Assembly: GCA_003221005.1 (NCBI GenBank)
Contig: QHTZ01000106.1
Location: 1 to 18,502 of the forward strand
Reading direction: 5' to 3'
DNA: 18,502 nt
Origin: Gemmatimonadota bacterium
GTDB taxonomy: Bacteria > Gemmatimonadota > Gemmatimonadetes > Gemmatimonadales > GWC2-71-9
This document shows positions 3,849-18,502 of this stretch, one piece after another (position 1 is the first letter of the stretch; each line of letters opens with the position of its first letter). The notes beneath the pieces are model-generated. The model was given only the letters and a program-made list of their open reading frames with translations. It was not told the origin of the DNA and made no database searches. Made by a program: the position numbers and the translations under genes.

Positions 3849-3877
3849 TTGACGTTCGTAGTGGCGGCGGGCATTTT
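3849..3877 (+). promoter_or_regulatory. Possible sigma70-type promoter for the TonB-dependent receptor
   Basis: TTGACG (3849-3854), 17-bp spacer, weak -10 CATTTT (3872-3877). SD-like GGAG at 3915-3918 precedes the ATG at 3928. Confidence 0.35.
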
Positions 3878-3927
3878 TGACACGCCCTTGCCAGCCGTCG
3901 TTCGGCAGTGCTCCGGAGACCGTCACC

Positions 3928-6900
3928 ATGAAGCGATTCCTGTGGTTCTCGTGCGTGTGCGGCGCGATCGCGCTGCACCAGTCGGGGCGTGTTGCATGGG
4001 CGCAGGGCGTCACTTCCGCCGCGGTCGCGGGCCGGCTGAGCGACGAAGCCGGCGCCGCCGTCGCGAGCGCATCCGTGACGCTGGTGAACGGGTCCACCGG
4101 GCAGCGCTACTCGCGGCGGTCCGCGGAGGATGGGCGCTACAACTTCGAAAACGTCGAAGTGGGCGGGCCCTATACGCTCGAGGTGCGGGCGCTGGGCTTC
4201 GAGGCCGCGAAGAGCGCGCCGTTCCAGCTCGCGCTGGGGCAGCGCTCCGCGGTCCACCTCACGCTCAAGCGCGCCGCCGTCGAAGTGGCGGCCGTGACCA
4301 TCACGGCACAGGCCGATCCGTTGCTGTCGACCGGCCGCACCGGCGCGCAGACCTTGATCTCGGACTCCGCGCTGCGCCGGCTGCCGACCTTGAACCGCAG
4401 CTTCGACAACTTCCTCAGTGCGACGCCCCAGGTCGTGGGCCGCTCGTTCACGGGGCAGAACGACCGCTTCAACAACATTCAGATTGACGGCACCGTCAAC
4501 AACGACCTCTTCAACCTCGGCGCCAGCAACGGCAGTCCCGGTGGCGGCGTCAATGCTAGACCGCTCTCGCTCGAGGCCATCAAGGAATACCAGGTGCTGA
4601 TTGCGCCGTTCGACGTGCGCCAGGGCGGCTTCGTGGGCGGCCTCGTCAACGCCATCACCAAGTCCGGCACGAACGCGTTTCACGGCTCGGCATTCGGCTA
4701 CGGCCAGAATCAGAACTTCGTGGGGACCGACACGGCGGGCGTCTCGGTGCCCGTGTCGGACTATCAGCAACAGCAGTACGGGTTCACGGTCGGCGGCCCG
4801 ATTATCCGGGACCGGCTGCACTTCTTCGTGTCGGGCGACCTGCGGCACGACAATCGCCCGTTCGCGTCGAGCGTGCAGATCGGGCCCGATCCCAGCAACC
4901 CGGTCGATACGGCCGGTGTCGGCATCACTCAGGCCCGCGCGGACTCGGTCCGGACCATCCTGCAGGGCTTGCCGAACGGCTTCGACCCTGGAGATTGGCA
5001 CGCTCCGCAGATCAACAACCCGGAGACGAACCTGTTCGCCAAGCTCGACTACGAGCTGGGCACGAACAGCCACCTGGAGCTGTCGGGGACGTTCGTCAGT
5101 GCGAACCAGGACAAGCTGATTCACTCGTACCGCCTGGGGTACACGAGTCCTCCGACGTTTGCCAACGCGCGCGACGGATACGAGCTCTCGAACAGCGGGT
5201 ACGCCGTGCAGAATCACACGCGGACGGTGCGCGCCAACTGGACCACGGCGTTCGCCAACCGGTTTTCCAACGAGCTGATTGTGGGGCGCACCACGATCTC
5301 GGACGACCGGCCACCCGACGTTCCGCAACCGCTCATCCTCGTGTGGGGGAACTCCCCGTACGCGTACCTGGCGGCTGGTGCCGAGCGCTTCTCGCACGCG
5401 AACATCCTCGACCAGCGGGTGGTGGAGGCGACCGACAACCTCACATTCTCGCTGGGCCGGCACCTCTTCACCCTCGGCACGCACAACGAGTTCATCCACT
5501 TCCGCAACGTGTTCTTTCCGGCGTCGATCGGGATTTGGAGTTTCGCGAGCCCGGCGGCGCTTGCTCTCGGCACGCCCAACATGTACGCCCGCGCGCTTCC
5601 AGGCGTGCTGCGTCCCGACGGCCCCGTCGCGGACTTCGACGTCACGCAGATCGGCTTCTACGGTGAGGATCGCTTCTCACCACTTCCGAACCTCGATCTG
5701 ACCGTGGGTTTGCGAGCCGATGTGCCATCGTTGCCCGCGCCGGCATATAACGCGGTGATCGAAGACAGCCTGGGCGTGAACACCAGCTCGACGCCGAGCG
5801 GAAACGTCCTGTGGTCGCCGCGGCTGGGCTTCCACTACGATGTGGGCGGCAGGCAAGAGATCGTCTTCCGCGGCGGCGCGGGCGTCTTCAGCGGCCGGCC
5901 GCCGTATGTGTGGGTGTCCAATGCCTACGGCAACACCGGGCTTGAGCAGCAGACGCTGTTCTGTGACGGCGCAGCCTCGACGGCGAACAACAATTCGTCG
6001 TTTGACACGGTGCCGGCGTTCACGCTCGACCCGAATAACCAACCGCTGACGTGCGGCGGGACGAACCAGATCGGGCCCTCGTCCGCGGCGACCTCGATCG
6101 TGTTCTACGATCCCGACTTCAAGTTCCCGCAGTCCCTGAAGGTGGCGCTCGGCGTCGATCGCTCGTTGCCCTGGCACCTGTTCGCGACGGTAGACTTCGT
6201 CTTCACGAAGGCGATCAACCAGTACTATCTCCAGGACGTGAATCTGGTCGGCGTGCAGTCGACCTCCACAGGGGAAGGCGGCCGCGCAGGCACGGGCGGC
6301 CGGCCGCTGTACGGTACGATCAATGCGAGCAACGGCCGCTCGACGCCAACGCGCGCCACGTCAAAGGCGAACGACGTGGTTGAGAACCGCAACGTCAGCG
6401 AGGACCAATCCACGTCGCTGACGTTCCAGCTGCAGAAGCGGTTCAGCGACGGGATCGAGTTCAGCGCCGCGTACACCTACTCGCATGCGCTCGACGTGAT
6501 CTCGATGACGTCGGATATCACCGGATCCAACTTTTCGAACGCCGTGGTGGACGGCACGCTCGAGAACCGGAACCTCGCCCGGTCGCAGTTCGACCGGCCG
6601 CACAAGGTCACCGTGAGTGGCACGATCAACGCGCCGTTCGACACTCGATTTTCGCTCATTTACAACGGCGTTTCCGGCACACCGTTTACGTACATGGTGA
6701 GCGGCGACGCGAACGCCGACGGCGTGACGACGAACGACCCGGTCTACGTACCGCGCAGCGCCCTCGACATCTCGCTGCAAAATCCGCCGGATTGGCCGAC
6801 CCTGGACGCCTTCATCAATAACGAGCCCTGCCTCAACAACAACCGGGGCCGGATCCTGCCGCGCAACGGCTGCCGCAACGGGTGGCAGAACATCTTGAAC

Positions 6901-7176
6901 GCGCGGCTCAGCAAAGTGGTCCCGACCGTGCACGGGCAGTCGATCGAAGTCACGGCGGACATGCTCAATGTGCTGAACTTCATCAACTCGAGCTGGGGCC
7001 TGATTCGGCAGACCGGCATCTTCGAGAACAGCCCCAACCTGCTTCGTCTCGTGGGTTATGACACGACCAACAACCGGGGCAAGTACGCGCTCAGCATACC
7101 GGTCAAGGATCAGGTGCAGATCAACAGCATCGGGTCCCGCTGGGTGTTCCAGCTGGGGATGAGGTATACCTTCTAG
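3928..7176 (+). CDS. TonB-dependent receptor, Oar-like, with N-terminal carboxypeptidase-regulatory-like domain (~1082 aa)
   Basis: Signal peptide ending AWA|Q. N-domain GRYNFENVEVGGPYTLEV, plug motifs NNIQIDGTVNNDLF and FDVRQGGFVGGLVNAITKSGTN, barrel motif WSPRLGFHYD, and C-terminal beta-signal LGMRYTF. Confidence 0.93.
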   Translation: MKRFLWFSCVCGAIALHQSGRVAWAQGVTSAAVAGRLSDEAGAAVASASVTLVNGSTGQRYSRRSAEDGRYNFENVEVGGPYTLEVRALGFEAAKSAPFQLALGQRSAVHLTLKRAAVEVAAVTITAQADPLLSTGRTGAQTLISDSALRRLPTLNRSFDNFLSATPQVVGRSFTGQNDRFNNIQIDGTVNNDLFNLGASNGSPGGGVNARPLSLEAIKEYQVLIAPFDVRQGGFVGGLVNAITKSGTNAFHGSAFGYGQNQNFVGTDTAGVSVPVSDYQQQQYGFTVGGPIIRDRLHFFVSGDLRHDNRPFASSVQIGPDPSNPVDTAGVGITQARADSVRTILQGLPNGFDPGDWHAPQINNPETNLFAKLDYELGTNSHLELSGTFVSANQDKLIHSYRLGYTSPPTFANARDGYELSNSGYAVQNHTRTVRANWTTAFANRFSNELIVGRTTISDDRPPDVPQPLILVWGNSPYAYLAAGAERFSHANILDQRVVEATDNLTFSLGRHLFTLGTHNEFIHFRNVFFPASIGIWSFASPAALALGTPNMYARALPGVLRPDGPVADFDVTQIGFYGEDRFSPLPNLDLTVGLRADVPSLPAPAYNAVIEDSLGVNTSSTPSGNVLWSPRLGFHYDVGGRQEIVFRGGAGVFSGRPPYVWVSNAYGNTGLEQQTLFCDGAASTANNNSSFDTVPAFTLDPNNQPLTCGGTNQIGPSSAATSIVFYDPDFKFPQSLKVALGVDRSLPWHLFATVDFVFTKAINQYYLQDVNLVGVQSTSTGEGGRAGTGGRPLYGTINASNGRSTPTRATSKANDVVENRNVSEDQSTSLTFQLQKRFSDGIEFSAAYTYSHALDVISMTSDITGSNFSNAVVDGTLENRNLARSQFDRPHKVTVSGTINAPFDTRFSLIYNGVSGTPFTYMVSGDANADGVTTNDPVYVPRSALDISLQNPPDWPTLDAFINNEPCLNNNRGRILPRNGCRNGWQNILNARLSKVVPTVHGQSIEVTADMLNVLNFINSSWGLIRQTGIFENSPNLLRLVGYDTTNNRGKYALSIPVKDQVQINSIGSRWVFQLGMRYTF

Positions 7177-8267
7177 GTCTTCGTCTTTCGCAACAGCCAC
7201 GCCGCCGCGCCACCGAACAACAGGTTCGGCGTCCACGCGGCGAGCAGCGGCGGCAGCACGCCGCCGGCTCCGATCGCCTTGGTGAGCTGAACCAGCAGCA
7301 GGAAGACGAACGTCGTGCCGAGGCTCACCGCCACGCCCCAGGCGGTGCCGGTGCGTGGGCCCGAGATCGCGAGCGGCGCGCCGAACACCGCCACCACGAT
7401 GCAGGTGAACGGCACCGCGAGCTTGAGGGCGCGCTCCACCCGCAGCTTCTTCGTGTCCGAGCCGCTCCGGGCCAGCGCGTCGATGTAGCGCCCCAGCTCG
7501 AAGAAGCGCATCTCCTCGGGGGCCTTCGGCTCGGCGAGGAGATCGATGGGCCGCTCCCGCAGGTCGCGGATCCGCAACGAGTCGAAGGTGAACGCCGTCT
7601 CACCCGCGGCGCCCTGCAGGTAACGCACCGCGCCGCGCCGCAACGTCCACCCGCGCCCGACCCCCTTGGGCCGGTACGTCGCGCTCGACGCGGCGACCTC
7701 GATGGTGGGGTACTCGGGCCCGCTCCCCTCCCGCTCCATGATCACGTCCTGCATCTGCCCGGCTCCCGTGTCGAGCGAGCGGATCGCGTACACCCAGCCG
7801 CGGTCGGCGCGGTACACGAAGTTGTAGCGGAGGCTGGTGGTGTGGACCGGCCGCTCGCCGAGCAGCTCGCCTCGCCGCAACGTTCCGACGGGCGCCACGT
7901 CGCCGATGATGATGCCGAACAAGACCACGGCCGCGGCGGCGACGAATAGGGGACGCACCAAGCGGTGGAACGACATCCCCGACGCCTTCGCCGCAGTGAG
8001 CTCCGAGTGGCGTGCCAGGGGCCCGACGGTGAACACCGTGGCGAACAGCACCGCGGCCGGGAGGACGAGAAACATGATCTCGGGCAGGTAGTAGAGGTAC
8101 GACAGCGCCACGGCGCCGCGCGTCAACCCGCGGGCCAGATAGCTGCCGAGCTTGTCGGTGATGTCGATGATGATCACCACGAGCGGGAAGCCGAGCTCCG
8201 CGAGCAGCAGGATGCGGAGCCACTCGCGCAGCAGGTAACGGTCGAGCGTCTTCAGCGACGCGTCCAC
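7173..8267 (-). CDS. lptG: LPS export ABC transporter permease LptG (YjgP/YjgQ family)
   Basis: N-terminus KTLDRYLLREWL, motif LARHSELTAAKASGMSFHRL, periplasmic beta-rich region, and C-terminal LPPLLAAWTPNLLF. Start is uncertain (GTG 8276, GTG 8267 or CTG 8255); the track's extension to 8786 overlaps lptF. F versus G is assigned mainly from gene order. Confidence 0.85.
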   Translation of the reverse strand: MDASLKTLDRYLLREWLRILLLAELGFPLVVIIIDITDKLGSYLARGLTRGAVALSYLYYLPEIMFLVLPAAVLFATVFTVGPLARHSELTAAKASGMSFHRLVRPLFVAAAAVVLFGIIIGDVAPVGTLRRGELLGERPVHTTSLRYNFVYRADRGWVYAIRSLDTGAGQMQDVIMEREGSGPEYPTIEVAASSATYRPKGVGRGWTLRRGAVRYLQGAAGETAFTFDSLRIRDLRERPIDLLAEPKAPEEMRFFELGRYIDALARSGSDTKKLRVERALKLAVPFTCIVVAVFGAPLAISGPRTGTAWGVAVSLGTTFVFLLLVQLTKAIGAGGVLPPLLAAWTPNLLFGGAAAWLLRKTKT

Positions 8268-9757
8268 CGGATCCACTGCACCAACAGGCCCTTGACGTCG
8301 GCCCAGTCTCCCGCCCCACCCGTGATGCTGTGGGCCGGGCGGCGCGCCAGCGCGAGCCCGGCGAGCCCCACCGCGGTGAACAACAGGTTCGCCGTCCACA
8401 TGGCGAAGAACGGCGACACCACGCCGCGGTCTCCCAGCTCCTCGCCTCCGATCAGGCCGATGTAGTAAATCGTGAACACCACGAGGCTCATCCCGATCAC
8501 GAGCCCGATCCCCCCGCGCGGGAAGCGGATCGCCACGGGAACGCCGAGCAGCGTGAACACGATGCATGCCACGGCGAGCGCGTACTTCTTGTAGATCTCG
8601 ATCTCGAATGAGGCCTGGCGGGCCCGCGCGCCCTGGCGGTGCGCGGCTGCGGCGGCGGTGACCCCGGCAGAGACCAGCGGGGCACGGGGGACGGCGGCGG
8701 GGGGAGGTGGCAGCCGCGGCGGCGCCACCCGATGTCCGCGCGGTGGCGCGGGCGTCTGCGCCGCCGCCGCTCGGGGGCCCAGCCATACGCCGATGGCGCG
8801 CAGCAGGTGGCAGTACGGGCCGACGGGCGTAGAGTCGGGGGGAGCGGGCGCGAGCGGCGGGGGCGCAGGGGCGAGCCCGGCGAGACGGCGCAGGTCATTG
8901 CCGACCGCGATCACCGCCTCGCTGTCGGCCCGCTCGGCCACGCGCTCCGTCTCCTTGACCACCTGCCGCATGTCGCACACCGACATCTCCCGGTCGGAGC
9001 GATAGGTATCGTTCTCGGTGCGTTCCAGGGTGTTACCGACGCCCGCCACGCGGATGCGGTTGGTGCGGTAGTGGGTGCGGTTGAACTGGGTCGGGTCGGT
9101 GCGGTTCACCTGCCGCGTGTCGCCGTCGAGCAGGGTGAGGTACAGGTCGCGGCCGCCCGGGGTATAAGCCATCTGTCCGCTGTCGGCGCTGATGATGCGG
9201 CGCCGCTCGGCGTCCTCCAGATCGTAGATCGTCACATCCTTCAGCCGGTTCGACGCGGGGTCGATCCGCGCGGCGCGCAGGAAGAATTGGCCCGCGACGA
9301 CCTCGTTGATGACCTGCTCCCGGAGACTGAAGGAGGGCTTCTTGCGCTGGATGTCCATCAGCAGCATCCGGAGCTGATGATTCGCGCGGGGCAGGACCTG
9401 GTCGTTCCACAGGAACGCGAGCACCGCCACGCACGTCGCGCCGCCCAGCACCGGCGCGAGCAACCGCCCGACGCTCACTCCCCCCGCCTTCATCGCCGTG
9501 ATCTCGTTGTCCGCCGCGAGGTGGGTGAACACGTACAGGACCGCGACGAGGACGGCCATCGGCAGCGTCGTGGCGACGATGAACGGGATCGACAGCACGA
9601 ACACTTCGACGATCACGCCCCAGGGGAGGCCCTTCCCGACGAGGTTGCCGAGCTGTTTGGCGACCTGCTGGATCAGGAGGAAGCAGGTCAGCGCGGCGAG
9701 AGCGAAGACCAGCGGTGCGAGGTGCTGGCGCAACACGTAACGGCTGAGGATGCGCAC
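8252..9757 (-). CDS. lptF: LPS export ABC transporter permease LptF (YjgP/YjgQ family) with a Pro/Ala-rich insertion (~501 aa)
   Basis: RILSRYVLRQH start, LAADNEITAMKAGGVS motif, EIYKKYALAVAC and AMWTANLLF. GTG at 9757 is preferred because the ATG at 9772 overlaps a perfect -10 box. Confidence 0.87.
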   Translation of the reverse strand: MRILSRYVLRQHLAPLVFALAALTCFLLIQQVAKQLGNLVGKGLPWGVIVEVFVLSIPFIVATTLPMAVLVAVLYVFTHLAADNEITAMKAGGVSVGRLLAPVLGGATCVAVLAFLWNDQVLPRANHQLRMLLMDIQRKKPSFSLREQVINEVVAGQFFLRAARIDPASNRLKDVTIYDLEDAERRRIISADSGQMAYTPGGRDLYLTLLDGDTRQVNRTDPTQFNRTHYRTNRIRVAGVGNTLERTENDTYRSDREMSVCDMRQVVKETERVAERADSEAVIAVGNDLRRLAGLAPAPPPLAPAPPDSTPVGPYCHLLRAIGVWLGPRAAAAQTPAPPRGHRVAPPRLPPPPAAVPRAPLVSAGVTAAAAAHRQGARARQASFEIEIYKKYALAVACIVFTLLGVPVAIRFPRGGIGLVIGMSLVVFTIYYIGLIGGEELGDRGVVSPFFAMWTANLLFTAVGLAGLALARRPAHSITGGAGDWADVKGLLVQWIRWTRR

Positions 9758-9770
9758 GGTCAGTCGCGCC

Positions 9771-9799
9771 ATTATATTCGCACCTCCACGGCTCTACAA
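9771..9799 (-). promoter_or_regulatory. Sigma70-type promoter for lptFG, overlapping an opposite-strand -10 pointing toward sprA
   Basis: Minus strand: TTGTAG (9799-9794), 17 bp, TATAAT (9776-9771). Plus strand: TATATT at 9773-9778. Confidence 0.65.
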
Positions 9800-9869
9800 G
9801 TGCCGTTCCAACCTATCGTGTCACGGCACATCGGTCCTGGAGTTTCCGGGAAACGCGTTGGAACGGCAC
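9800..9869. repeat. Perfect 13-bp inverted repeat upstream of sprA
   Basis: GTGCCGTTCCAAC (9800-9812) and GTTGGAACGGCAC (9857-9869), 44 nt apart. A partial third copy ACGGCAC sits at 9823-9829. Confidence 0.8.
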
Positions 9870-9874
9870 CAGGG

Positions 9875-12800
9875 ATGGCGCGCCCCGTCCTGGCCGGTCT
9901 GCTCACCCTGGCGCTCGTCATACCCCAGGCCCATGCGCAGGATCGAGCCGCGGCTCCTCCCGCGTTTCATGCGTCATTTCACGCCGCGCCGCTCGTCCCG
10001 CCGCGCAATCCTGCGCTCGCGCCCGGCGGGCGACTTGGCCCGCGCACGTCGCCCGCGCTCGTCGCCGCCGCCTGGGAAGCGGAGGTGCGCGCGTCGCTGC
10101 CCCGGGGCCTGAATCCAAGCACGCTCGCCGCCGCAGCGGGCGCGGCGGCGCCCGAGGCGCCAGGCGCGCCGCCGCTCGCTCCCCGTCTCCCTCCCCCCCG
10201 CCCGGGCGGACTGCTCGGTCCCTACGCGGACCTCGGGATGCAGCTGAACCTGCGCTTCGAGCTCAAGGCCGACCGCTTCCAGAACCTGCGCTGCACCGCG
10301 TTCGATCAGCTCCAGGCGCTGTCCGGGTGCAATGCCGGGTTCCCCACCATCACCCCCACGCCGCAGTACTCGGTTCGCACCGCCGGCACCGTGGCGCAGC
10401 GGTTGCACGTGAAGGTGGACTTCGACAGCCAGCGCGAGTTCGACGCCAACAACAACCTCCAGGTCTGGTACGAGGGGCTCGAGGACGAAGTCCTCCGGCG
10501 GGTGGAGGCCGGCAACGTGACGTTCCAGATGCCACGCTCGCGCTTCATCACGGCCGCCATTCCGGCCAACAACTTCGGCGTCCAGGCGATCGGTCAGGTG
10601 GGGCCGCTCGAGCTGCGCGGCATCTTCGCGCAGCAGAAGGGCAACATCGTCCAGGACCGTACGTACACCATCGGCGAGACTGCCACGGAGCCGCTCGACC
10701 GGCTGGCGCGCGACCTCGATTACGAGCAGGGCCGCTTCTTCTTTGCCGTTGACCCCGCGGCGTTTTCGGGATATCCGGCGCTCGATGTCCTCACGCTCGA
10801 CGCGTCCGCGCTGCCACTCGAGCTTCGAGTCGGGAGCCTGCGGGTGTACCGGCTGCGGGCGGTGTCGCCGACGTCGATCGCCCAGCAGAACATCGGCGGC
10901 GTGCGGGCGGTGGCGTGCGGGGCCGGCGCCACCGAGCCCGTTGATTGCGCGGTCCAGCGCGCCGGCCCCTTCCAGTGGGAGGTGCTCCAGGAAGGAAAGG
11001 ACTACTACGTCGACCCGAGCGGCGCCTGGTTCGCGCTCGCGAGCCGCTTGGGCCAGAGCGACTACCTCGCCATGTCCTATGTTCCCGTCGGACAGACGGG
11101 ATGCGGCCCCCCTTCCGGGGGACGCTGCGTCGGCACGTTCCCGATCGTCGCCAATCCCAACCCGGCGGTGGTGGACACGCTGCGGCTCGTGTACGATCCC
11201 CGCCCCGGCACGCCGGCCACCGCGCCGTCGTTCCGGTTCGAGATCCGGAGCGCGTACCGGGTCGGTGGGAGCGAGACGACCCGAGAAACGGTCCAGCTCA
11301 CGCTGACCGTCAACCAGCGTGAGCGCGCCGTCGTCACCGGCCAGACGTACCTCGCCCTGCTCGGGCTGGCGCTCGCCTCCGACGCCACGCAGCTCGACAC
11401 CTACAACCGCCTGTTCCCGCGCGCCCGGGATCCGCAGCAGGGCGCCCCGCTGCGCGACTACTTCCTCGTGTTTCCCCACTTGGCCCCGTTCGCGGATTCC
11501 GCCAAGCTCGGGCCCACGGAGCGCAACGACTCGCTGTACCGCACGCCACGCCCGCTGCTCCCGACCCAGGGCCCGCCCTCCGTGTTCGCGCTCCGGCTGC
11601 ACGCCAACGTGTCGCTCACGGGCGACCGCGGCAGCCTGTCGCTCAACAGCTTTCAGATCCGCGACGGGAGCGAGCGGATCTACGTCGGCAGCCAGTTGCT
11701 CACGCGGGGCGTGGACTACACGATCGATTATCCGTCCGGGACGGTGACGTTCAAGAGCCCGGACTCGTTGTTCGCCGGCGGGGCGAAGCAAGTGCGCGCC
11801 CAGTTCGAAGAGCGAGCCGCGTTCGCGGTGGCGCCCACGTCCATCTTCGGCATGGCGGCGCGCTACGATCTCGGCGAGCGTGGCGAGGTGAACTTCACGG
11901 GGCTGTTCCAGCGGCAGCAGAGCGCGTTCACCCGGCCGCCGCTCGGGCTTGAGCCGTCCTCGAGCTTCATCGGCGGGGTGAGTACCGAGCTGCACTTCAA
12001 GCCCGAGTGGGTCACGCGGGCGCTCAACCTGCTGCCGGGGATCCACACCGACGCGCCCTCGTTCGTCAACGTGTCCGCCGAGGTCGCGAGATCGCAGCCG
12101 AGCCCGAACCGACTGGGGCAGGCGACGGTGGAGGACTTCGAGGGCGAGGCAGGGCGCTTCATCACGCTCGCGGATAACAGCTGGCATTGGGGGAGCGTCC
12201 CCTCGACCACGCGTGGGGCCGAGCCGTTCGGGTTCGCCGGCGTCGGGTTCGACACCACCAACACAGCCGCCCTGACCTGGCAGAGCCTCCCGTACAACAG
12301 CGACGGCACTCCAGTGCAGTTCCTCGCCCAGCAAGTCGACCCGACGATCCGCACCGTGGGCCAGGCGCAGTCCGCCGAGCCGGCGCTCTGGCTCGCCCTC
12401 AAGCCCGACACCGTGCTCGGGCTCGCCGACGCGCGAACCGGCGTGCCGAACTGGGTACGTCCACACCGGGACGGCCCACGCTGGCGCTCGATCACCCAGG
12501 GGCTCTCCGCCACGGGAATCGATCTCTCCCGTGTCGAGTACCTGGAGCTGTGGGTGTGGGAGGACAATCACCGGACCGCGAAGGCCAATGGGGCGGCGCT
12601 GCTGCTTGACTTCGGCTCCGTGTTCGAGGACGCGCTGGCGTTCGTGCCCGAAACCGTGAGCGTCTCGCCGGCGGGCGACACGACCTACTCCGGCTACCGG
12701 CGCGCGGGGGTGGGGCGACTCGACACGGAGGCGGAGCCGATCACGCACTCCTGGAGCGCGGCGATCGACGACGAGGGAATCCTCGGGGATCGCGTGGTGG

Positions 12801-15800
12801 ACGGCATCTGGAACGTGGGCGCGGGGGTCTTGATCGACACCCTGCCGCTCTGTAGCGGGACGATCAACGGCCAGGTGGGGCGGTACGGGTTCGGAGACCT
12901 GCGGTCCCGCTGCGGGCGTCATAACGGCGCCATCGACACCGAGGATCTGGACGGCGACTTCCAGCTGGACTCCGCGGCCGGGGTGCGGACGTCGGAGAGC
13001 TTCGTGCGCTACGCGTTCGCCATTGGCGACGACCGCTACTACGTCCGGGACGGCGGCATGGTCCCGGTCAAGGACAGCCTCGGCAATCCGGACGGCGCGT
13101 CGGGATGGCGCCTGTACCGGATCCCGTTTCGCACCGACACGATCATGCAGGGCACTCCCTCCCTGCGGCAGGTGCAGAGCCTCCGCCTCACCGTCGTGGC
13201 GCCCCACACGGCGCCCCCCGGGCAGCCCGATCCCCAGCTGTTCTTCGGGCTCGCGCGCGTCCGCCTCGTGGGCGCGACGTGGCTCAAGCGTGCGGACACG
13301 CCGATCCGCGGCGTGGCCGGCGAGCAGGGCACGGGGACGGGCGAGGTCGTGGCCTCGGTCGTCAGCACGGAGAACCAGGATCTCGGCTACACGCCGCCCC
13401 CGGGCGTCAGCGACGAGGCGGCGCGCGTGGACGCAAACCTCCAGGTGGGCACGACCCAGATCAACGAGCGCTCGCTCAGGCTGCTCGCGAGCGGGCTGGA
13501 GCGGGGGCAGCACGCCGAGGCCTACCTGCGGTTCACGACGGAAGGCGACAAGAACTTCCTCAGGTACCGGCGTGTGCGGGCGTGGGCCCGGGGCCGCGGT
13601 CCCGGGTGGGAGGAAGGAGACTTCGAGTTCTACCTCAAGGCCGGCAAGGACCAGAACAACTTCTACTTCTATCACGTGCCGGCCCACACGACCTCGTGGG
13701 ACCCCGAGGTCGTCGCCGACTTCAGCCGCTGGCTCGCGCTGCGGGCGTTGGTGGAGCAGGCGTGGCTGCGGGGCGAGGCGCCGCGGGTCTACCCGGGGTG
13801 CCCCGACTCGACGCTCGTGCCGTTCGACTCGGCCTACGTGATGTGCGACGGGCCGTACCTGGTCCACGTGCGGGATCCCGCGACGGCTCCGCCGAGCCTG
13901 GCCGCTGTGCAGGAGCTCGCGGTAGGCATCTGGCGCGTGGACGCGAAGGCGGTCGTCCCTCAGGCCGAGCTCTGGGTGGACGACATCCGCCTGAGCGACG
14001 TGGTACAGGATGGGGGTACCGCCGCCGCCCTGGACCTGACGCTCAGCGCCGCGAACGTGGCCGACGTCGTCCTCTCGCTGTCGCGCCGGGACGGCCAGTT
14101 CCGCCAGCTCGGCGCGGATCCGAGCTACACGACGGACAACGTCGTGAGCGTCGGCGCGACGGTGCAGCTCCAGCGGTTTCTCCCGGAGGCGTGGGGCGTG
14201 GCGATGCCGCTGTCGGTGCGCCGCGCGACGACGTCGAGCGACCCGTTCTACCTGAGCGGTACCGACATCGAGGCCGCCGAGCTTGCGGGGCTGCGGACGC
14301 CGCACAGCTCTGCGACGAGCTACAGCCTGGCGCTGCGCCACGCCCGCCGCTCAACCGGCACCCTCATGCGCTACCTCGTGGACCCGTTCGCGTTCACGGG
14401 CTCCTACACCGACGGCACGGCGCAGAGCGATCTGTCGCTCGCCTCCGCCTCGAGCTACGGCGCCAACCTCGACTACGCTCTCAACCCCGGAAGACGAGCG
14501 ATCGCCGGCTGGCGCGTCAGCCCCACGAGCCTGCGGTTCCGCTCGAGCCTCCTCGGGACGGACGGGTCGCGCTTCACCTACGCCGTCCCCATCGCCCGCG
14601 ACTCGGATGCGCTGCTCACTCCCGCGCTGTCGCGCACCAAGGTGTGGCGCAACACCGGCGGCGTGGAGTTCGTGCCCCTGAGCGGCCTGCAGCTGCGGCT
14701 CGACCTGAGCTCGCAGCGCGACCTGCGCGACTACGGGGATTCCACGAGTCTCGGCCGGCTCGCGCGCCTGGAGCGTGGCACGCTGCTGGGTCAGAACGTT
14801 GGGTTCGAGACGCAGCGGGCGATGAACACCTACCTCACGGCCACCCCGCCGGTCGGGACCTGGCTGCGGCCGCGGCTGACGCTGGGATCCTCATTCCTGT
14901 TGAGCCGGGATCCCAACGCGCGCGCCCCCGTCCGCGACATCGGCGATACGGCGGGCGGGTTTCACATTCCCACGGCGTTCAGCAACTCCCGCCGCGTGGA
15001 CGTAGGCGCGCAGCTCGATGCGCGGCGTCTCGGGCAGAAGCTGTTTGGCGACAGCGCCGCCCTGGCGCGGCTCGTGGGCCGTCTCACCAACCTCGACGTG
15101 TCCTACGGCCGCGTGTTCGGCTCCAGCTACTTCGACGCGCCGCGCGTTCCCGCGCTCGCCTACCAGCTCGGCCTGGGCGGGTTCGACAGGTTCCGCCGCC
15201 AGGACGGACTGCTCGCCGGCTCCGCGACCGACAACCTCACCCTCAATGCGGCCGGCGCCGCGCGGTTGTTGCTGGGGCTGCGGGTGAGCGGCAATTACCA
15301 GCGGACGCACGGTGAAACGTGGGTGCTCCGCGGGACGGATCAGGTTCCGCTGCAGACTACCAGCCGCGAATGGCCATCGGGGATCGCCAGCTGGAACCTG
15401 ACGCCGCCCCGCGCGGCGGGCGGCTGGCTCATCCGCGCCATCACCGCGCGGTTCACCTACCGGCGGCGCGAGACGACGATCCAGCAGAGCCTCCTGGCCG
15501 AAGTCGCCCCGTCGTTCGCCCTCACCCAGACCACCGAGCGCACCGTCGGCCCGTCCGTGTCGGTCACGTGGCTCGGGGGCGTGTCGACTTCCTACGACCT
15601 CTCGCGCATTAGGAGCGACGCGCTGAACGCGGGCAACGTGTTCCGGACCACGCGCAGCCAGGGGAACGCCAGCCTCAACTTCGCGTTTCGGCCCCCGGCG
15701 GGCGTCGTGCGGCTCAAGAACGTGATCCGGACCAGCGCTCGCTATGTCTCCACCGAGAACGTCGTGTGTCTCCAAGCGGCGGGCCAGGAGACGTGCGTGC

Positions 15801-15985
15801 CGTACGTGGACAGTCGGCAGACCCAGACGCAGCTTACCCTCGACACTGACTTCCCTCCCTCTCTGAGTGCGGGGTTTCAGATGGCGTACCTCGTGAACGA
15901 CGAACGGCAGTTCAATCACAAGACGGCGCAGCTCGTGATCACGGCGTTCGTAAACCTGTCCACCAGCGTGGGGCAGATCCGGTGA
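9875..15985 (+). CDS. sprA: SprA/Sov-like very large outer-membrane beta-barrel (type IX secretion translocon homolog, ~2036 aa)
   Basis: Signal peptide MARPVLAGLLTLALVIPQAHA|Q. Segments I recognise as SprA-family blocks occur in the expected order: YEGLEDEVLRRVEAGNV...IFAQQKG, LLTRGVDYTIDYPSGTV, AEVARSQP...VEDFEG, DTEDLDGD, WRLYRIP, ELWVDDIRLSD...GGTAA. The C-terminal third has alternating beta-strand patterns. The track start at 8639 is antisense to lptF. Confidence 0.85.
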   Translation: MARPVLAGLLTLALVIPQAHAQDRAAAPPAFHASFHAAPLVPPRNPALAPGGRLGPRTSPALVAAAWEAEVRASLPRGLNPSTLAAAAGAAAPEAPGAPPLAPRLPPPRPGGLLGPYADLGMQLNLRFELKADRFQNLRCTAFDQLQALSGCNAGFPTITPTPQYSVRTAGTVAQRLHVKVDFDSQREFDANNNLQVWYEGLEDEVLRRVEAGNVTFQMPRSRFITAAIPANNFGVQAIGQVGPLELRGIFAQQKGNIVQDRTYTIGETATEPLDRLARDLDYEQGRFFFAVDPAAFSGYPALDVLTLDASALPLELRVGSLRVYRLRAVSPTSIAQQNIGGVRAVACGAGATEPVDCAVQRAGPFQWEVLQEGKDYYVDPSGAWFALASRLGQSDYLAMSYVPVGQTGCGPPSGGRCVGTFPIVANPNPAVVDTLRLVYDPRPGTPATAPSFRFEIRSAYRVGGSETTRETVQLTLTVNQRERAVVTGQTYLALLGLALASDATQLDTYNRLFPRARDPQQGAPLRDYFLVFPHLAPFADSAKLGPTERNDSLYRTPRPLLPTQGPPSVFALRLHANVSLTGDRGSLSLNSFQIRDGSERIYVGSQLLTRGVDYTIDYPSGTVTFKSPDSLFAGGAKQVRAQFEERAAFAVAPTSIFGMAARYDLGERGEVNFTGLFQRQQSAFTRPPLGLEPSSSFIGGVSTELHFKPEWVTRALNLLPGIHTDAPSFVNVSAEVARSQPSPNRLGQATVEDFEGEAGRFITLADNSWHWGSVPSTTRGAEPFGFAGVGFDTTNTAALTWQSLPYNSDGTPVQFLAQQVDPTIRTVGQAQSAEPALWLALKPDTVLGLADARTGVPNWVRPHRDGPRWRSITQGLSATGIDLSRVEYLELWVWEDNHRTAKANGAALLLDFGSVFEDALAFVPETVSVSPAGDTTYSGYRRAGVGRLDTEAEPITHSWSAAIDDEGILGDRVVDGIWNVGAGVLIDTLPLCSGTINGQVGRYGFGDLRSRCGRHNGAIDTEDLDGDFQLDSAAGVRTSESFVRYAFAIGDDRYYVRDGGMVPVKDSLGNPDGASGWRLYRIPFRTDTIMQGTPSLRQVQSLRLTVVAPHTAPPGQPDPQLFFGLARVRLVGATWLKRADTPIRGVAGEQGTGTGEVVASVVSTENQDLGYTPPPGVSDEAARVDANLQVGTTQINERSLRLLASGLERGQHAEAYLRFTTEGDKNFLRYRRVRAWARGRGPGWEEGDFEFYLKAGKDQNNFYFYHVPAHTTSWDPEVVADFSRWLALRALVEQAWLRGEAPRVYPGCPDSTLVPFDSAYVMCDGPYLVHVRDPATAPPSLAAVQELAVGIWRVDAKAVVPQAELWVDDIRLSDVVQDGGTAAALDLTLSAANVADVVLSLSRRDGQFRQLGADPSYTTDNVVSVGATVQLQRFLPEAWGVAMPLSVRRATTSSDPFYLSGTDIEAAELAGLRTPHSSATSYSLALRHARRSTGTLMRYLVDPFAFTGSYTDGTAQSDLSLASASSYGANLDYALNPGRRAIAGWRVSPTSLRFRSSLLGTDGSRFTYAVPIARDSDALLTPALSRTKVWRNTGGVEFVPLSGLQLRLDLSSQRDLRDYGDSTSLGRLARLERGTLLGQNVGFETQRAMNTYLTATPPVGTWLRPRLTLGSSFLLSRDPNARAPVRDIGDTAGGFHIPTAFSNSRRVDVGAQLDARRLGQKLFGDSAALARLVGRLTNLDVSYGRVFGSSYFDAPRVPALAYQLGLGGFDRFRRQDGLLAGSATDNLTLNAAGAARLLLGLRVSGNYQRTHGETWVLRGTDQVPLQTTSREWPSGIASWNLTPPRAAGGWLIRAITARFTYRRRETTIQQSLLAEVAPSFALTQTTERTVGPSVSVTWLGGVSTSYDLSRIRSDALNAGNVFRTTRSQGNASLNFAFRPPAGVVRLKNVIRTSARYVSTENVVCLQAAGQETCVPYVDSRQTQTQLTLDTDFPPSLSAGFQMAYLVNDERQFNHKTAQLVITAFVNLSTSVGQIR

Positions 15986-16878
15986 CCCGGGTGCTGCGCA
16001 TCGCCGTCGCGGCCGTGCTGCTCGCCTGCCCGGCCGGGAGAGGGGCGCGCCGGCGCGAGTTCGATGGGGAGCGGGCTTTTGGCTTCCTCCAGCAGCAGCT
16101 GGCGTTCGGGCCCCGGATCCCCGGGACGCCGGGGCACGAGCGGGCGGGTGACTGGATCCTCACTCAGCTGCGCGCCGATGCCGACGCCGTCGTGATTCAG
16201 GCATTTACGCACGTCACCCGTCGCGGCGACGTGCTGCACCTGCGCAACTTTCTGGCGCGCTTCCGGCCAGCCCTGCCGGAACGCGTGCTGTTCCTCGCCC
16301 ACTGGGACACGCGGCCTCATGCCGACCAGAGTGCCAACCTGGGCGCCCAGCGCCTCCCGGTTCCCGGTGCCAACGACGGGGCGTCGGGCGTCGCGGTGCT
16401 GCTTGGCGTGGCTGGCGCGCTCAAGGTCAAGCCGCCCGCCGTGGGAGTGGACCTGCTGTTCGTCGACGGCGAGGATTACGGGGACTTCGCCGACTCGAGC
16501 GACGTGCTCATCGGCTCCCGCTACTTCGCGGCCCACCAACCCGCGGGCTATCCCCCGCTCTACGCCGTGCTGTTCGACATGGTCGGGGACAAGAGCCTCG
16601 ACATCTACTACGAGGGCAATTCGCAGACGGCTGCCCCGGAAGTCGTCGACCGCGTGTGGCGCACCGCGCATGACCTGGGATACGACCGCTACTTCCTGCC
16701 AGGCACCAAGCACACCTTGGTGGACGATCACGTCCCGCTGCAGCGGGCGGGGATTCACGCGATCGATGTCGTGGACTTCGACTACCCCTTCTGGCACACG
16801 ACCGAAGACACGATCGACAAAGTCTCGGCGGCGTCGCTGCAAATAGTCGGCGATGTTGCTGTGGCACTGGTACGGTAA
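15982..16878 (+). CDS. M28-fold zinc lipoprotein, probably a bacterial type II glutaminyl cyclase (298 aa)
   Basis: Lipobox LLA|C16. Motifs FGPRIPG, AHWDTRP, GANDGASG, DGEDYG, LFDMVG, DDH and FWHTTED. GTG start overlaps the sprA stop (GTGA). Confidence 0.85.
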   Translation: MTRVLRIAVAAVLLACPAGRGARRREFDGERAFGFLQQQLAFGPRIPGTPGHERAGDWILTQLRADADAVVIQAFTHVTRRGDVLHLRNFLARFRPALPERVLFLAHWDTRPHADQSANLGAQRLPVPGANDGASGVAVLLGVAGALKVKPPAVGVDLLFVDGEDYGDFADSSDVLIGSRYFAAHQPAGYPPLYAVLFDMVGDKSLDIYYEGNSQTAAPEVVDRVWRTAHDLGYDRYFLPGTKHTLVDDHVPLQRAGIHAIDVVDFDYPFWHTTEDTIDKVSAASLQIVGDVAVALVR

Positions 16879-16880
16879 GA

Positions 16881-16945
16881 GAGGCGTTGCCGGTGAAGCG
16901 TGCCAGGTGGAGCGCGCCGAGTAACGCCTCAACCGGCAACGACTC
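16881..16945. repeat. Long imperfect inverted repeat/hairpin after the M28 gene (REP-like element or terminator/processing stem)
   Basis: CGTTGCCGGT (16885-16894) pairs perfectly with ACCGGCAACG (16932-16941) and extends imperfectly both ways. The nearest T-run (16958-16962) is about 12 nt beyond the stem. Confidence 0.6.
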
Positions 16946-17011
16946 ACTCTGCACGCATTTTTCCTACCCCCGCTGCGTTAGTCCGCTCTCCGCACTGTGC
17001 GCTCGTCTCAC

Positions 17012-17026
17012 TACCGTCGGTGCACC
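17012..17026 (+). promoter_or_regulatory. Possible -10 element giving a near-leaderless comEA transcript
   Basis: TACCGT, then CGGTGCACC, then ATG. Same spacing and GCACC as at ctaA and the permease; no SD. Confidence 0.4.
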
Positions 17027-17434
17027 ATGGACGACCGCCGCGCCGCGTTGCTCCTCAGCGTGCTCGCGCTCACGGGCGCCAGCGTGCGCTACGTGATCGC
17101 CCCCAGCGCCGCCGCACCGGGCGACGTCGCGCTCGCCGCCGTCGATACGCCACCGCGCGGCGGACTGCAGGCGACGGCCCGCGCGGCCGCCCGCCTAGCG
17201 CGGCCGCTCCTGCCAGGCGAGCATGTGGACCTGGACCGAGCGGACGTGACCGAGATCACGCGATTGCCGCGCGTCGGCCCGGCGCTCGCGCAGCGCATCG
17301 TCGCCTGGCGCACCGCGCACGGACCGATCGGCACCCTCACACGCCTCGACAGCGTCCCCGGTGTGGGCCCCGGCCTGCTCGAGGCACTGCGTCCATTCGT
17401 CACATTTTCGGGGGTTATCCCGCCCGCGCCTTGA
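17027..17434 (+). CDS. comEA: ComEA-family helix-hairpin-helix DNA-binding protein (~135 aa)
   Basis: N-terminal hydrophobic anchor, VDLDRAD, and two HhH motifs LPRVGPALAQRIV and VPGVGPGLLEAL. Confidence 0.82.
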   Translation: MDDRRAALLLSVLALTGASVRYVIAPSAAAPGDVALAAVDTPPRGGLQATARAAARLARPLLPGEHVDLDRADVTEITRLPRVGPALAQRIVAWRTAHGPIGTLTRLDSVPGVGPGLLEALRPFVTFSGVIPPAP

Positions 17435-17458
17435 CTTGGGTTCGCCGGCCCCTAATTT
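17431..17458 (+). promoter_or_regulatory. Sigma70-type promoter for pilB
   Basis: TTGACT (17431-17436, containing the comEA TGA stop), 16 bp, TAATTT (17453-17458). Confidence 0.55.
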
Positions 17459-17479
17459 AGGTCGTTCAATCTCAACGAG

Positions 17480-18502
17480 TTGCATACGGCGACCGCAGCG
17501 GCCACCACGGACAAGCTGGGTGAAATCCTCGTCCGTGAAGGTCTGATCACCCCGGACCAGCTCAGGAAGGCGCTTCTCGAGCAGAAGGGCTCGGGGATGC
17601 GGCTTGGCTACACCCTGGTGAAGCTCGGGTTTATCGAGGAGACCGAGGTCACCAAGATGCTGGCCCGCCAGTACCGGATGCCGGCGGTGGACCTCTCCCG
17701 CTTCGAGGTCGAGCCCAAGATCCTGAAGCTCCTGACGCCCGACATCGCGATCAAGCACACCGTCCTGCCCCTCAAACGGGAGGGCCGCACCCTCACGATC
17801 GCCATCGCCGACCCGAACAACGTGACGGCGATCGAGGACATCAAGTTCATTACCCGGTGCGACGTGTTCCCGGTGATCGCCGGGGAGTACACCCTGCGCA
17901 ACGCTATCGACCGCTACTACCAGCAGTCCGACGCCCAGCTCCAGACCCTCCTGAAGAGCGTGGAGGCCGCGGAAGAGCTCGAAGTGGTCGAGGAGGCTCA
18001 GGACGAGGACGTCAAGGCGACCGACCTGGCGGACGACGCCCCGGTGGTCAAGCTGATCAACGGATTGCTCACCGACGCGGTCAAGCGGGGCGCTTCGGAC
18101 GTCCACATCGAGCCGTTCGAGCACGAGATGCGGGTGCGCTACCGGGTGGACGGGGCGCTCCAGGAAGTGATGAAGCCCCCCGTCAAGATGCGCGCGGCGC
18201 TCACCTCGCGCGTCAAGATCATGGCCGCTCTGAACATCGCCGAGCGGCGCGTGCCGCAGGACGGACGCATCAAGCTGAAGATGGGTGCGCGGGTGATCGA
18301 CTTCCGGGTGTCGACCCTCCCCGTCCTGTTCGGCGAGAAGATCGTGCTCCGGATCCTCGACAAGGGCAACCTGACACTCGACCTCACGAAGTTTGGGTTC
18401 GAGCCCAAGGCGGAGGAGCACCTGATGCGGGCGATCCTGAACCCGTACGGAATGGTGCTCGTGACGGGGCCGACGGGGTCCGGGAAAACCACGACGCTCT
18501 AC
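17480..18502 (+). CDS. pilB: Type IV-A pilus assembly ATPase PilB (GspE/PulE family) with N-terminal MshEN domain; 3' end runs off the window
   Basis: Not in the ORF track. Manual translation gives DKLGEILVREGLITPDQLRKALLEQ-KGSGM-RLGYTLVKLGFIEETEVTKMLARQ, then DAPVVKLIN, ASDVHIEP, RYRVDG, IAERRVPQDGRI, FRVSTLP, GEKIVLRILD and Walker A GPTGSGKTT at the edge. Start is TTG 17480 or ACG 17486. Confidence 0.92.
   Translation, partial: MHTATAAATTDKLGEILVREGLITPDQLRKALLEQKGSGMRLGYTLVKLGFIEETEVTKMLARQYRMPAVDLSRFEVEPKILKLLTPDIAIKHTVLPLKREGRTLTIAIADPNNVTAIEDIKFITRCDVFPVIAGEYTLRNAIDRYYQQSDAQLQTLLKSVEAAEELEVVEEAQDEDVKATDLADDAPVVKLINGLLTDAVKRGASDVHIEPFEHEMRVRYRVDGALQEVMKPPVKMRAALTSRVKIMAALNIAERRVPQDGRIKLKMGARVIDFRVSTLPVLFGEKIVLRILDKGNLTLDLTKFGFEPKAEEHLMRAILNPYGMVLVTGPTGSGKTTTLY

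Follow-up and report, generated by a model that had tools for sequence, protein, structure and literature searches.

Does a gene resembling a type 9 secretion system (T9SS) translocon, encoded outside the Bacteroidota, belong to a working export machine, and what would drive such a machine? This question is raised by a stretch of 18,502 nucleotides (hereafter the window), which is the whole of contig QHTZ01000106.1 (C20) in the assembly GCA_003221005.1, a 2.79-Mb metagenome-assembled genome (MAG) of a soil bacterium of the Gemmatimonadales in 141 contigs, rated 93.9% complete and designated here as G000. At positions 9875..15985 of its plus strand, the window carries sprA, a gene for a protein of 2036 amino acids. 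Gemmatimonadota belongs to the Fibrobacterota-Chlorobiota-Bacteroidota (FCB) superphylum. The presence of T9SS in Gemmatimonadetes is touched on in one sentence of the accessible portion of a review, according to which the system 'may also be present' (PMC11285876). The literature searches made here brought up no paper devoted to T9SS in Gemmatimonadota or stating that the motor is missing outside Bacteroidota; supplementary tables (e.g. those of PMC4793230) could hold per-phylum hits. The analysis described here indicates that the gene is, in all probability, a Gemmatimonadota orthologue of SprA/Sov residing at a fixed locus, whose product most likely forms the pore that a pared-down type 9 secretion module uses to translocate proteins across the outer membrane.

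The product of 9875-15985 is a true member of the SprA/Sov family, which in F. johnsoniae is represented by a giant single-chain β-barrel of 36 strands. The open reading frame (ORF) extends over 2036 codons with no internal stops, so that the intact SprA-like gene announced by the original prediction is indeed there. The protein scores 491.2 bits (E 6.8e-147) with TIGR04189, the NCBIfam model entitled "T9SS outer membrane translocon Sov/SprA", whose cut-off is 200, and 44.2 bits with Pfam SprA_N, whose cut-off is 27. Searched alone against the PDB by phmmer, it retrieves the F. johnsoniae SprA entries 6h3i and 6h3j with an E of 1.8e-27, and a profile of 28 Gemmatimonadota orthologues matches 6h3i at E 5.2e-77, where profile positions 378-1734 correspond to chain positions 436-1895 (~1350 positions). 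An AlphaFold2 model covering the C-terminal 1000 residues (1037-2036), computed from a 28-row alignment, reached a mean predicted local distance difference test (pLDDT) value of 81.3 and displays ~24 long strands after residue 328 of the piece. When this piece was compared with the PDB by Foldseek, as had been advised with the original prediction, four SprA chains (8gl8_A, 8gl6_A, 6h3i_A and 6h3j_A) stood on top with E 7.6e-32 to 6e-24 and TMq 0.47-0.49, followed by the next match at E 3.7e-6; identity in the structural alignment with the SprA chains is 12-13%. The barrel fold suggests an outer-membrane location of the product.

The N-terminus is signal-peptide-like and ends in AHA|QDRA; inspection of the translation predicts a Sec signal peptide of 22 residues (9875..9940, plus strand) with cleavage at AHA|Q, which would leave an N-terminal Gln. 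The same type of start, ending in [AGS]Q, is found in 50 of the 53 orthologues having a full-length gene call, and two of the three exceptions are mis-called starts. Relatives of the sprA locus, taken as one genome per species, amount to 127 confirmed loci, the best 80 of which show 43-76% identity over the full length of SprA. These best 80 of 127 all derive from Gemmatimonadota/Gemmatimonadales MAGs, and the genome is therefore not one of the Bacteroidota, in agreement with the non-Bacteroidota origin presumed in the original prediction.

Two partners expected of a type 9 translocon are recognisable elsewhere in G000, namely carrier barrels and proteins with a T9SS-type C-terminal domain (CTD). 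Six-frame family searches and hmmscan disclosed two barrels of the PorV/PorQ family, scoring 122.4 and 120.5 bits with NF033709 (cut-off 90), and one of the two also passes the Pfam PorV cut-off (33.4 vs 27); both lie far below the PorQ equivalog cut-off. One barrel gene (C40:9030-10244) is situated between era and a response-regulator/GGDEF gene; the second (C135:4519-5661) is preceded by a large gene truncated at the contig edge and followed by the gene of a GWxTD protein. The barrel adjacent to the cargo scores 75.2 bits with the PorQ model vs 45.8 bits with the PorV model. The cargo operon (C65:5120-1 and C135:7772-1693, minus strand) encodes, in order, an Oar-type transporter, a CTD cargo of ~1330 residues, the PorV/PorQ-like barrel, the GWxTD protein and a protein of 538 residues; the cargo gene is interrupted by the gap between the two contigs, which were joined by tblastn with the orthologue from a related genome, G058. 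The transporter is of the TonB-dependent Oar type with CarboxypepD_reg and TonB Plug domains, and the place directly upstream of the cargo gene is taken by an Oar-like gene of the same strand in G000, G058 and 20/20 further genomes examined. In G058 (C51, L114), the cargo operon is located ~10 kb from sprA.

The last 100 residues of the cargo match the PorZ CTD model NF052228 at E 1.1e-5, and its body has no PorZ match outside the CTD. Folded with 21 orthologues, the CTD was modelled as a β-sandwich (pLDDT 84.1) whose best PDB match, and the sole one at E ≤ 0.001, is PorZ 5m11 (E 4.4e-5, TMq 0.64, 27% identity); PorU 6za2 (rank 11) and the RemZ CTD 8gl8_D, taken from the SprA complex (rank 14), appear lower in the same list. 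When the PorV-like barrel and the cargo CTD were modelled as a complex, the score was 0.92, against 0.00 for the best of three controls; 58 of 80 solved complexes attained that mark, as did 2 of 110 mismatched pairs. The runs had at least 91% of contacts in common, with a partner pLDDT of at least 82. Since PorV-CTD complexes have already been solved, this model is a demonstration of likeness to them, not of binding. A second CTD is carried by a protein of 143 residues (L144; C74:1998-2426, minus strand), which consists of a signal peptide ending in ARG|QG and a T9SS-type CTD with no passenger, and which scores 24.8 bits with Por_Secre_tail (cut-off 27; E 2.7e-5). A jackhmmer search with the cargo CTD over all six-frame ORFs of G000 returned nothing beyond the cargo itself. 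As read from the sequence, the client list of G000 would thus be tiny, comprising one surface protein of ~1330 residues and one CTD-only protein of 143 residues.

The distribution of these components was surveyed in 151 genomes of the phylum that are at least 90% complete, G000 included, several of them being single-contig; the tallies include G053, and that of the cyclase described below also G093, and leaving these out shifts the counts by 1-2 with conclusions unchanged. SprA (TIGR04189) is over the cut-off in 120/151 genomes, the PorV family (NF033709) is matched in 133/151 at E ≤ 1e-5 and is over the cut-off in 115/151, the type A CTD (TIGR04183) is matched in 64/151 at E ≤ 0.001, and the cargo family occurs in 66/151. 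A PorV-family match accompanies SprA in 119 of the 120 SprA-positive genomes, with G114 as the exception, and 17 of the 18 genomes having no PorV-family match also have no SprA. Within the family to which G000 belongs, the cargo was found in 43 of the 74 other genomes, all SprA-positive, and in 0/13 of the SprA-negative ones. CTD matches number 1-2 per genome in 41/74 genomes of this family and 24 to at least 35 in all 15 genomes of families f10-f12. The phylum thus appears to hold a rich form, with SprA, PorU, 11-14 PorV matches and dozens of cargoes, and a lean form including G000, with SprA, one to four PorV-like barrels, one or two cargoes and no PorU.

Natural losses point in the same direction. 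In G135 (L110, C141; same genus as G000, rated 100% complete) and G031 (L111, C8; same family), sprA is missing and lptF adjoins the cyclase gene across ~60-110 bp; as these two genes of the conserved locus are directly adjacent, the loss is not an assembly gap. Both genomes contain weak PorV-family matches only (5.6e-6 and 7e-9) and no cargo match. This joint absence of SprA, carriers and cargo suggests that the three are functionally tied as a module, the counts being drawn from related genomes and hence not representing independent events.

In contrast with these components, the motor, the ring and the sortase escaped detection. In six-frame family searches of G000, GldL, GldK and GldN gave no match even at E ≤ 1, GldM gave none at E ≤ 0.001, and PorU and PorP/SprF were not matched; nor is porK/L/M/N, porV or porU among the annotated genes of the window, in accordance with the original prediction. 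Across the phylum, GldM (TIGR03517) was found in 0/151 genomes; GldM_1st (PF12081) was over the cut-off in 0/151, with one match of 18.8 bits, and GldL (TIGR03513) likewise in 0/151, with nine matches of at most 21 bits. The best GldL/GldM scores, ~20 bits, fall on low-complexity parts. In five chosen genomes of the phylum, GldN was not matched, and GldK yielded only FGE-sulfatase matches of at most 112 bits vs a cut-off of 350. One GldK-like match, that of G006 (L107, C42:4294-7310), was followed and rejected as PorK, because a protein of the FGE-sulfatase fold is succeeded there by HRDC, bAvd and a reverse transcriptase, which constitute a diversity-generating retroelement. This retroelement protein is the sole GldK-like match of G006, while G011 contains 74 matches below the cut-off, an expansion of the same fold. 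The PorU model reached 583-636 bits (cut-off 420) in G012, G006 and G011, three of the CTD-rich genomes, which demonstrates that it works in this phylum, and found nothing in G000 or G063. Neither the rich nor the lean form shows a motor or ring by the Bacteroidota-trained models.

The translocon gene is embedded in a characteristic neighbourhood. Upstream and divergent from sprA lies lptF (8252..9772, minus strand; Pfam LptF_LptG, E 7.6e-82), followed by lptG (7173..8240, minus strand, start approximate; LptF_LptG at E 6.2e-72 in the 7173-8786 frame, over its last 352 residues). Downstream on the plus strand are a gene of the M28 fold (15982..16878; Pfam Peptidase_M28), the start of which overlaps the sprA stop by 4 nt, a ComEA-like helix-hairpin-helix gene (17027..17434; BLASTP E 2e-11 to the HHH_3 protein that G006 encodes in the corresponding place) and pilB, the type IV pilus ATPase (17480..18502; Pfam T2SSE and MshEN), which is cut by the contig end. 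Among those of the best 80 of 127 loci with enough flanking sequence, lptF is divergent and less than 500 nt from sprA in 54/54 having at least 1600 nt upstream, the M28-fold gene lies at most 400 nt downstream in 58/61 having at least 1000 nt downstream (exceptions L075, L076 and L078), and pilB lies at most 3 kb downstream in 46/47; lptG was detected by tblastn in 60/80 loci, many of which are cut short. The order lptG-lptF <> sprA-cyclase-comEA-pilB is kept in two distant genomes of the phylum, G006 and G012. The former belongs to another family, has a guanine-plus-cytosine (GC) content of 54-58% and a SprA merely 25% identical, and downstream of its pilB come two further genes of the type IV pilus, one for a second T2SSE ATPase and one for a T2SSF platform protein. 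In the distant genome G063, the order is kept without the cyclase. One locus common to the sampled genomes fits vertical inheritance of sprA in Gemmatimonadota. Genus g41 (G063, G088, G099 and G132; L112) has a SprA much nearer to the Bacteroidota model (818-1251 bits, reaching model position 1832-1979); its sprA is placed at the same lptFG locus, the cyclase gene is absent, and G063 also has no PorU.

The flanking genes had been foreseen as lptFG, an M28 enzyme, comEA and pilB, all of which are present, and the second is more exactly a glutaminyl cyclase. The product of 15982-16878 matches, by phmmer over query residues 26-294, the PDB glutamine cyclotransferases 6qql (E 1.3e-57), 7cje (1.5e-57) and 6qro (1.3e-55), and on account of these matches of ~1e-57 the gene is identified from its sequence as a type II (M28-fold) glutaminyl cyclase; some close PDB entries were deposited as 'leucine aminopeptidase'. 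In addition to this identification, the present analysis extends the original prediction in finding that the locus order is phylum-wide where examined, not a chance neighbourhood, and that the system is dispensable.

Gln is strongly favoured directly after the predicted signal peptides of G000. In this genome, 123 ORFs pass a strict signal-peptide filter, and 47 of them (38%) have a Gln that meets the -3/-1 rule; relative to the mature regions, the share of Gln after predicted signal peptides is raised 8.8x, and that of Ala, which ranks second, 2.6x. The filter is home-made and lets false positives through, so the Gln figure is to be read as an enrichment and not as a Q-value. Earlier crude heuristics, which gave 8-13% Gln at +1, were replaced, most of their non-Gln cases being false signal peptides or misplaced sites. 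The cyclase occurs in 127/151 genomes of the phylum and is kept in 12/13 SprA-negative genomes of the own family, and it is absent from some SprA-positive lineages, e.g. the four g41 genomes; this pattern speaks for an enzyme with a general role in the envelope, whose coupling to sprA is incidental and which is no part of T9SS. In the accessible portion of the paper on the 'Q-rule', the rule is described as a feature of Bacteroidetes, "not the entire FCB group", that coincides phylogenetically with T9SS, and that portion makes no mention of Gemmatimonadetes (PMC5837995). The likeness to the Bacteroidota enzyme and rule (PMC5837995, PMC10653852) consists of a sequence match over ~270 residues and of the Gln with which SprA and many predicted secreted proteins of G000 start after the signal peptide; the difference is that the cyclase here is encoded outside Bacteroidota and translationally coupled to sprA. 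These observations suggest that the Q-rule of Bacteroidota holds in a Gemmatimonadales genome.

A model may be drawn from these components. Cargo and machinery would cross the inner membrane by Sec, and signal peptidase I would expose the N-terminal Gln, which the putatively co-transcribed cyclase probably turns into pyroglutamate as a general envelope habit rather than a T9SS signal. A carrier barrel of the PorV/PorQ family, attached to the pore of SprA, would be bound by the cargo CTD, and cargo and carrier would leave together through that pore. Because no PorU sortase was found, the cargo probably stays on the carrier with its CTD uncleaved, in the manner of P. gingivalis PorZ, which is described as staying on PorQ with an uncleaved CTD. 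For the release step, which requires energy in Flavobacterium, three options would then arise, namely a motor diverged beyond recognition, some other system driven by protons, or no motor at all. A bolder proposal, which is advanced tentatively as a serious possibility rather than an expectation, is that the Gemmatimonadota translocon works without a GldLM/PorLM motor or PorKN ring, that release is spontaneous or driven by TonB-ExbBD via the Oar transporter, and that the motor-coupled machine of Bacteroidota is a derived, gliding-tied elaboration of an older pore-plus-carrier export.

Several points weigh against a type 9 module in G000, or against its being motor-free. The two barrels reach 65 and 46 bits vs 250 with the PorV equivalog NF033710; the large cargo scores 12.9 bits vs 23 with the type A CTD model TIGR04183, which has no match at E ≤ 0.001 anywhere in G000; and the 21-sequence CTD profile, run over the six-frame ORFs of G000, retrieves the cargo and one weak match (E 0.11), the CTD-only protein. 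SprA-negative relatives are viable, and the clean absence of sprA from two same-family genomes, one of the same genus, marks the system as accessory and dispensable. G000 is a MAG of 141 contigs, ~6% of which is possibly missing, and the GldK/L/M/N models passed in no genome tried, so that their sensitivity for a diverged motor is unproven. The steps joining the observed components, above all the passage of protein through this pore, are what we infer.

The motor models are the point on which the reading of an ordinary, complete T9SS turns, whose GldLM motor and GldKN ring have diverged beyond the models or lie in the unassembled 6%; we judge this unlikely, albeit by no means negligible. The models concerned (TIGR03513, TIGR03517, TIGR03523, TIGR03525 and PF12081) are Bacteroidota-trained, and they were run here with no positive control, as none of the 14 control genomes comes from a T9SS organism; the PorV equivalog, too, stays far below its cut-off though the family model passes, so that Bacteroidota-tuned models do lose Gemmatimonadota members, and the lineages with PorU and 24 to at least 35 CTD cargoes look fully working yet give no motor match, as a failure of sensitivity would produce. 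Set against this, three models failed to reach the GldL/GldM cut-off in any of the 151 genomes, the SprA, PorU, PorV-family and CTD models from the same libraries do find Gemmatimonadota members, the one GldK-like match that was followed, in G006, belongs to a diversity-generating retroelement as its variable protein, and the same TIGRFAMs, used through TXSScan, led to a T9SS call in 60/97 Bacteroidetes genomes according to the accessible portion of that study (PMC4793230). A far less credible reading takes SprA as a factor of outer-membrane biogenesis or one related to lipopolysaccharide (LPS), which its fixed place next to lptFG might suggest, or as a decaying relic, instead of a secretion pore, and appeals to the divergent pairing with lptF in 54/54 loci and to the very few detectable CTD cargoes of G000. 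It is very improbable, for G135 and G031 retain lptFG at a locus cleanly devoid of sprA, which means that LPS export does not need sprA; the presence of SprA tracks PorV-family genes and CTD cargo, and a relic would hardly retain an intact ORF with 43-76% identity across the best 80 loci and ~100 invariant columns in the 28-sequence alignment.

The energy question gives rise to a further possibility, namely a pore energised via TonB-ExbBD, where the Oar-type transporter would pass proton-motive energy to the outer membrane and release the carrier-cargo pair. The Oar transporter of Myxococcus is reportedly needed for secretion of the protease PopC. In Flavobacterium without the motor, substrates accumulate on SprA-PorV, from which the authors concluded that energy from the GldLM motor is required to detach carrier and substrate from SprA (PMC10994853). 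Only two MotA/ExbB-family genes were found in G000, at L119 and L120 (C109:39548-41933 and C88:49199-52461), one in the order exbB-exbD-exbD followed by an unassigned gene for 256 residues and the other in tolQ-tolR...tolB. As both are thus exbB and tolQ, no flagellar stator was detected in the G000 assembly by the MotA/ExbB-family search. This small set of stators, together with the Oar-like gene directly upstream of the cargo in every genome inspected, makes TonB-ExbBD the sole concrete candidate energiser that can be named, on the basis of gene adjacency alone. The role of the transporter may be no more than the uptake of whatever is captured by the surface protein, and no TonB-related gene is present in the SprA locus itself, so that a TonB-driven release strikes us as distinctly improbable.

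A reduced type 9 module with SprA as its translocon therefore continues to be the reading we prefer. The 'minimal T9SS-like system' of the original prediction was upheld in so far as two barrels and a CTD cargo were found and GldKLMN, PorU and PorP were not, and its addition 'energised differently' was neither shown nor excluded. The whole-genome hidden Markov model (HMM) survey that had been advised brought out PorV-family barrels and CTD cargo and, with Bacteroidota-trained models, no GldKLMN; the genome is of Gemmatimonadota, the searches of its other parts disclosed no complete canonical T9SS, and the structural model is SprA-like.

Compared with SprA of F. johnsoniae (6H3I, 6H3J, 8GL6 and 8GL8) and P. 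gingivalis Sov, the protein shares the HMM family, the ~1350-residue profile match, the fold of the C-terminal half, the predicted Sec signal peptide and the co-occurrence with PorV-family barrels and CTD-tagged proteins. It differs in length (2036 residues vs 2403 in the solved chain of F. johnsoniae SprA), in its phylum, in serving one or two predicted cargoes instead of dozens, in the lack of detectable GldLM/GldKN, PorU and PorP in its genome, and in being encoded in the fixed lptFG/cyclase/comEA/pilB cluster. A second point of reference is the PorZ-PorQ/PorU-PorV attachment complex of P. gingivalis, to which G000 is similar in that the cargo CTD best matches PorZ by HMM and by fold, the adjacent barrel scores higher as PorQ than as PorV, and barrel and CTD were modelled as a complex. 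In contrast, the cargo body is unlike PorZ, the barrels fall far below the equivalog cut-offs, no PorU was found, and an Oar-type transporter and a GWxTD protein are encoded as additional members of the operon. Taken alone, the sprA gene is an unremarkable representative of an established family, and automated pipelines would name it correctly. What seems unusual lies at the system level, where sprA occupies a fixed locus wherever sampled, is accompanied by carriers and cargo, is repeatedly and cleanly absent jointly with them and never coincides with a recognisable GldLM/GldKN.

Gemmatimonadota has cultured members. If the absence of the motor is real, the minimal working core of type 9 secretion would be defined, and what the motor does, and whether it is needed, would become questions to ask in this phylum, for which G135 and G031, with their natural sprA absences and matching absence of clear carriers and cargo, would be available as comparison genomes. 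If a diverged motor exists, the case would reduce to a regular T9SS of a sister phylum, along with a caution about how far the current profiles reach. The sprA-cyclase operon and the Gln-first signal peptides would extend the Q-rule beyond Bacteroidota.

A different arrangement was observed in G012, where an operon of overlapping genes (L118, C83:770-11953, minus strand) places a cargo and carrier of T9SS type B right next to a proton motor of the ExbBD type. It encodes a TPR protein, an FG-GAP/CARDB protein of 1183 residues with a type B (CHU_C) sorting domain, a PorP/SprF-family protein, a MotA/ExbB-like protein (308 residues) and an ExbD-like protein (137 residues), and ends with three genes having no informative family (348, 552 and 226 residues, the second with weak TPR similarity). 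This ExbB/ExbD pair was considered as a substitute motor of the phylum and rejected, for it has no tblastn relative in G000 and its ExbB is found in just 2/151 genomes.

The DNA of the window has a GC content of 70%, and long open frames are misleading there (8639-9874 and 16900-17460). Upstream of the sprA start, the frame is open back to 8639 (412 codons) and overlaps lptF on the opposite strand. An ORF of 186 residues at 16900-17460 was discarded as an Arg/Pro-rich wrong frame with no family and no ComEA similarity, the real gene being contained in the 16997-17434 frame. The remaining genes of the window, as assigned by Pfam, encode an ABC exporter, CtaA, an amino-acid permease and an Oar-like outer-membrane barrel with CarboxypepD_reg and OMP_b-brl_4 domains (3877..7176, plus strand). 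The last, which is mentioned for context only, is a paralogue of the transporter heading the cargo operon on C65, and its gene shows 29-33% identity by tblastn to an Oar-like gene near sprA in G058.

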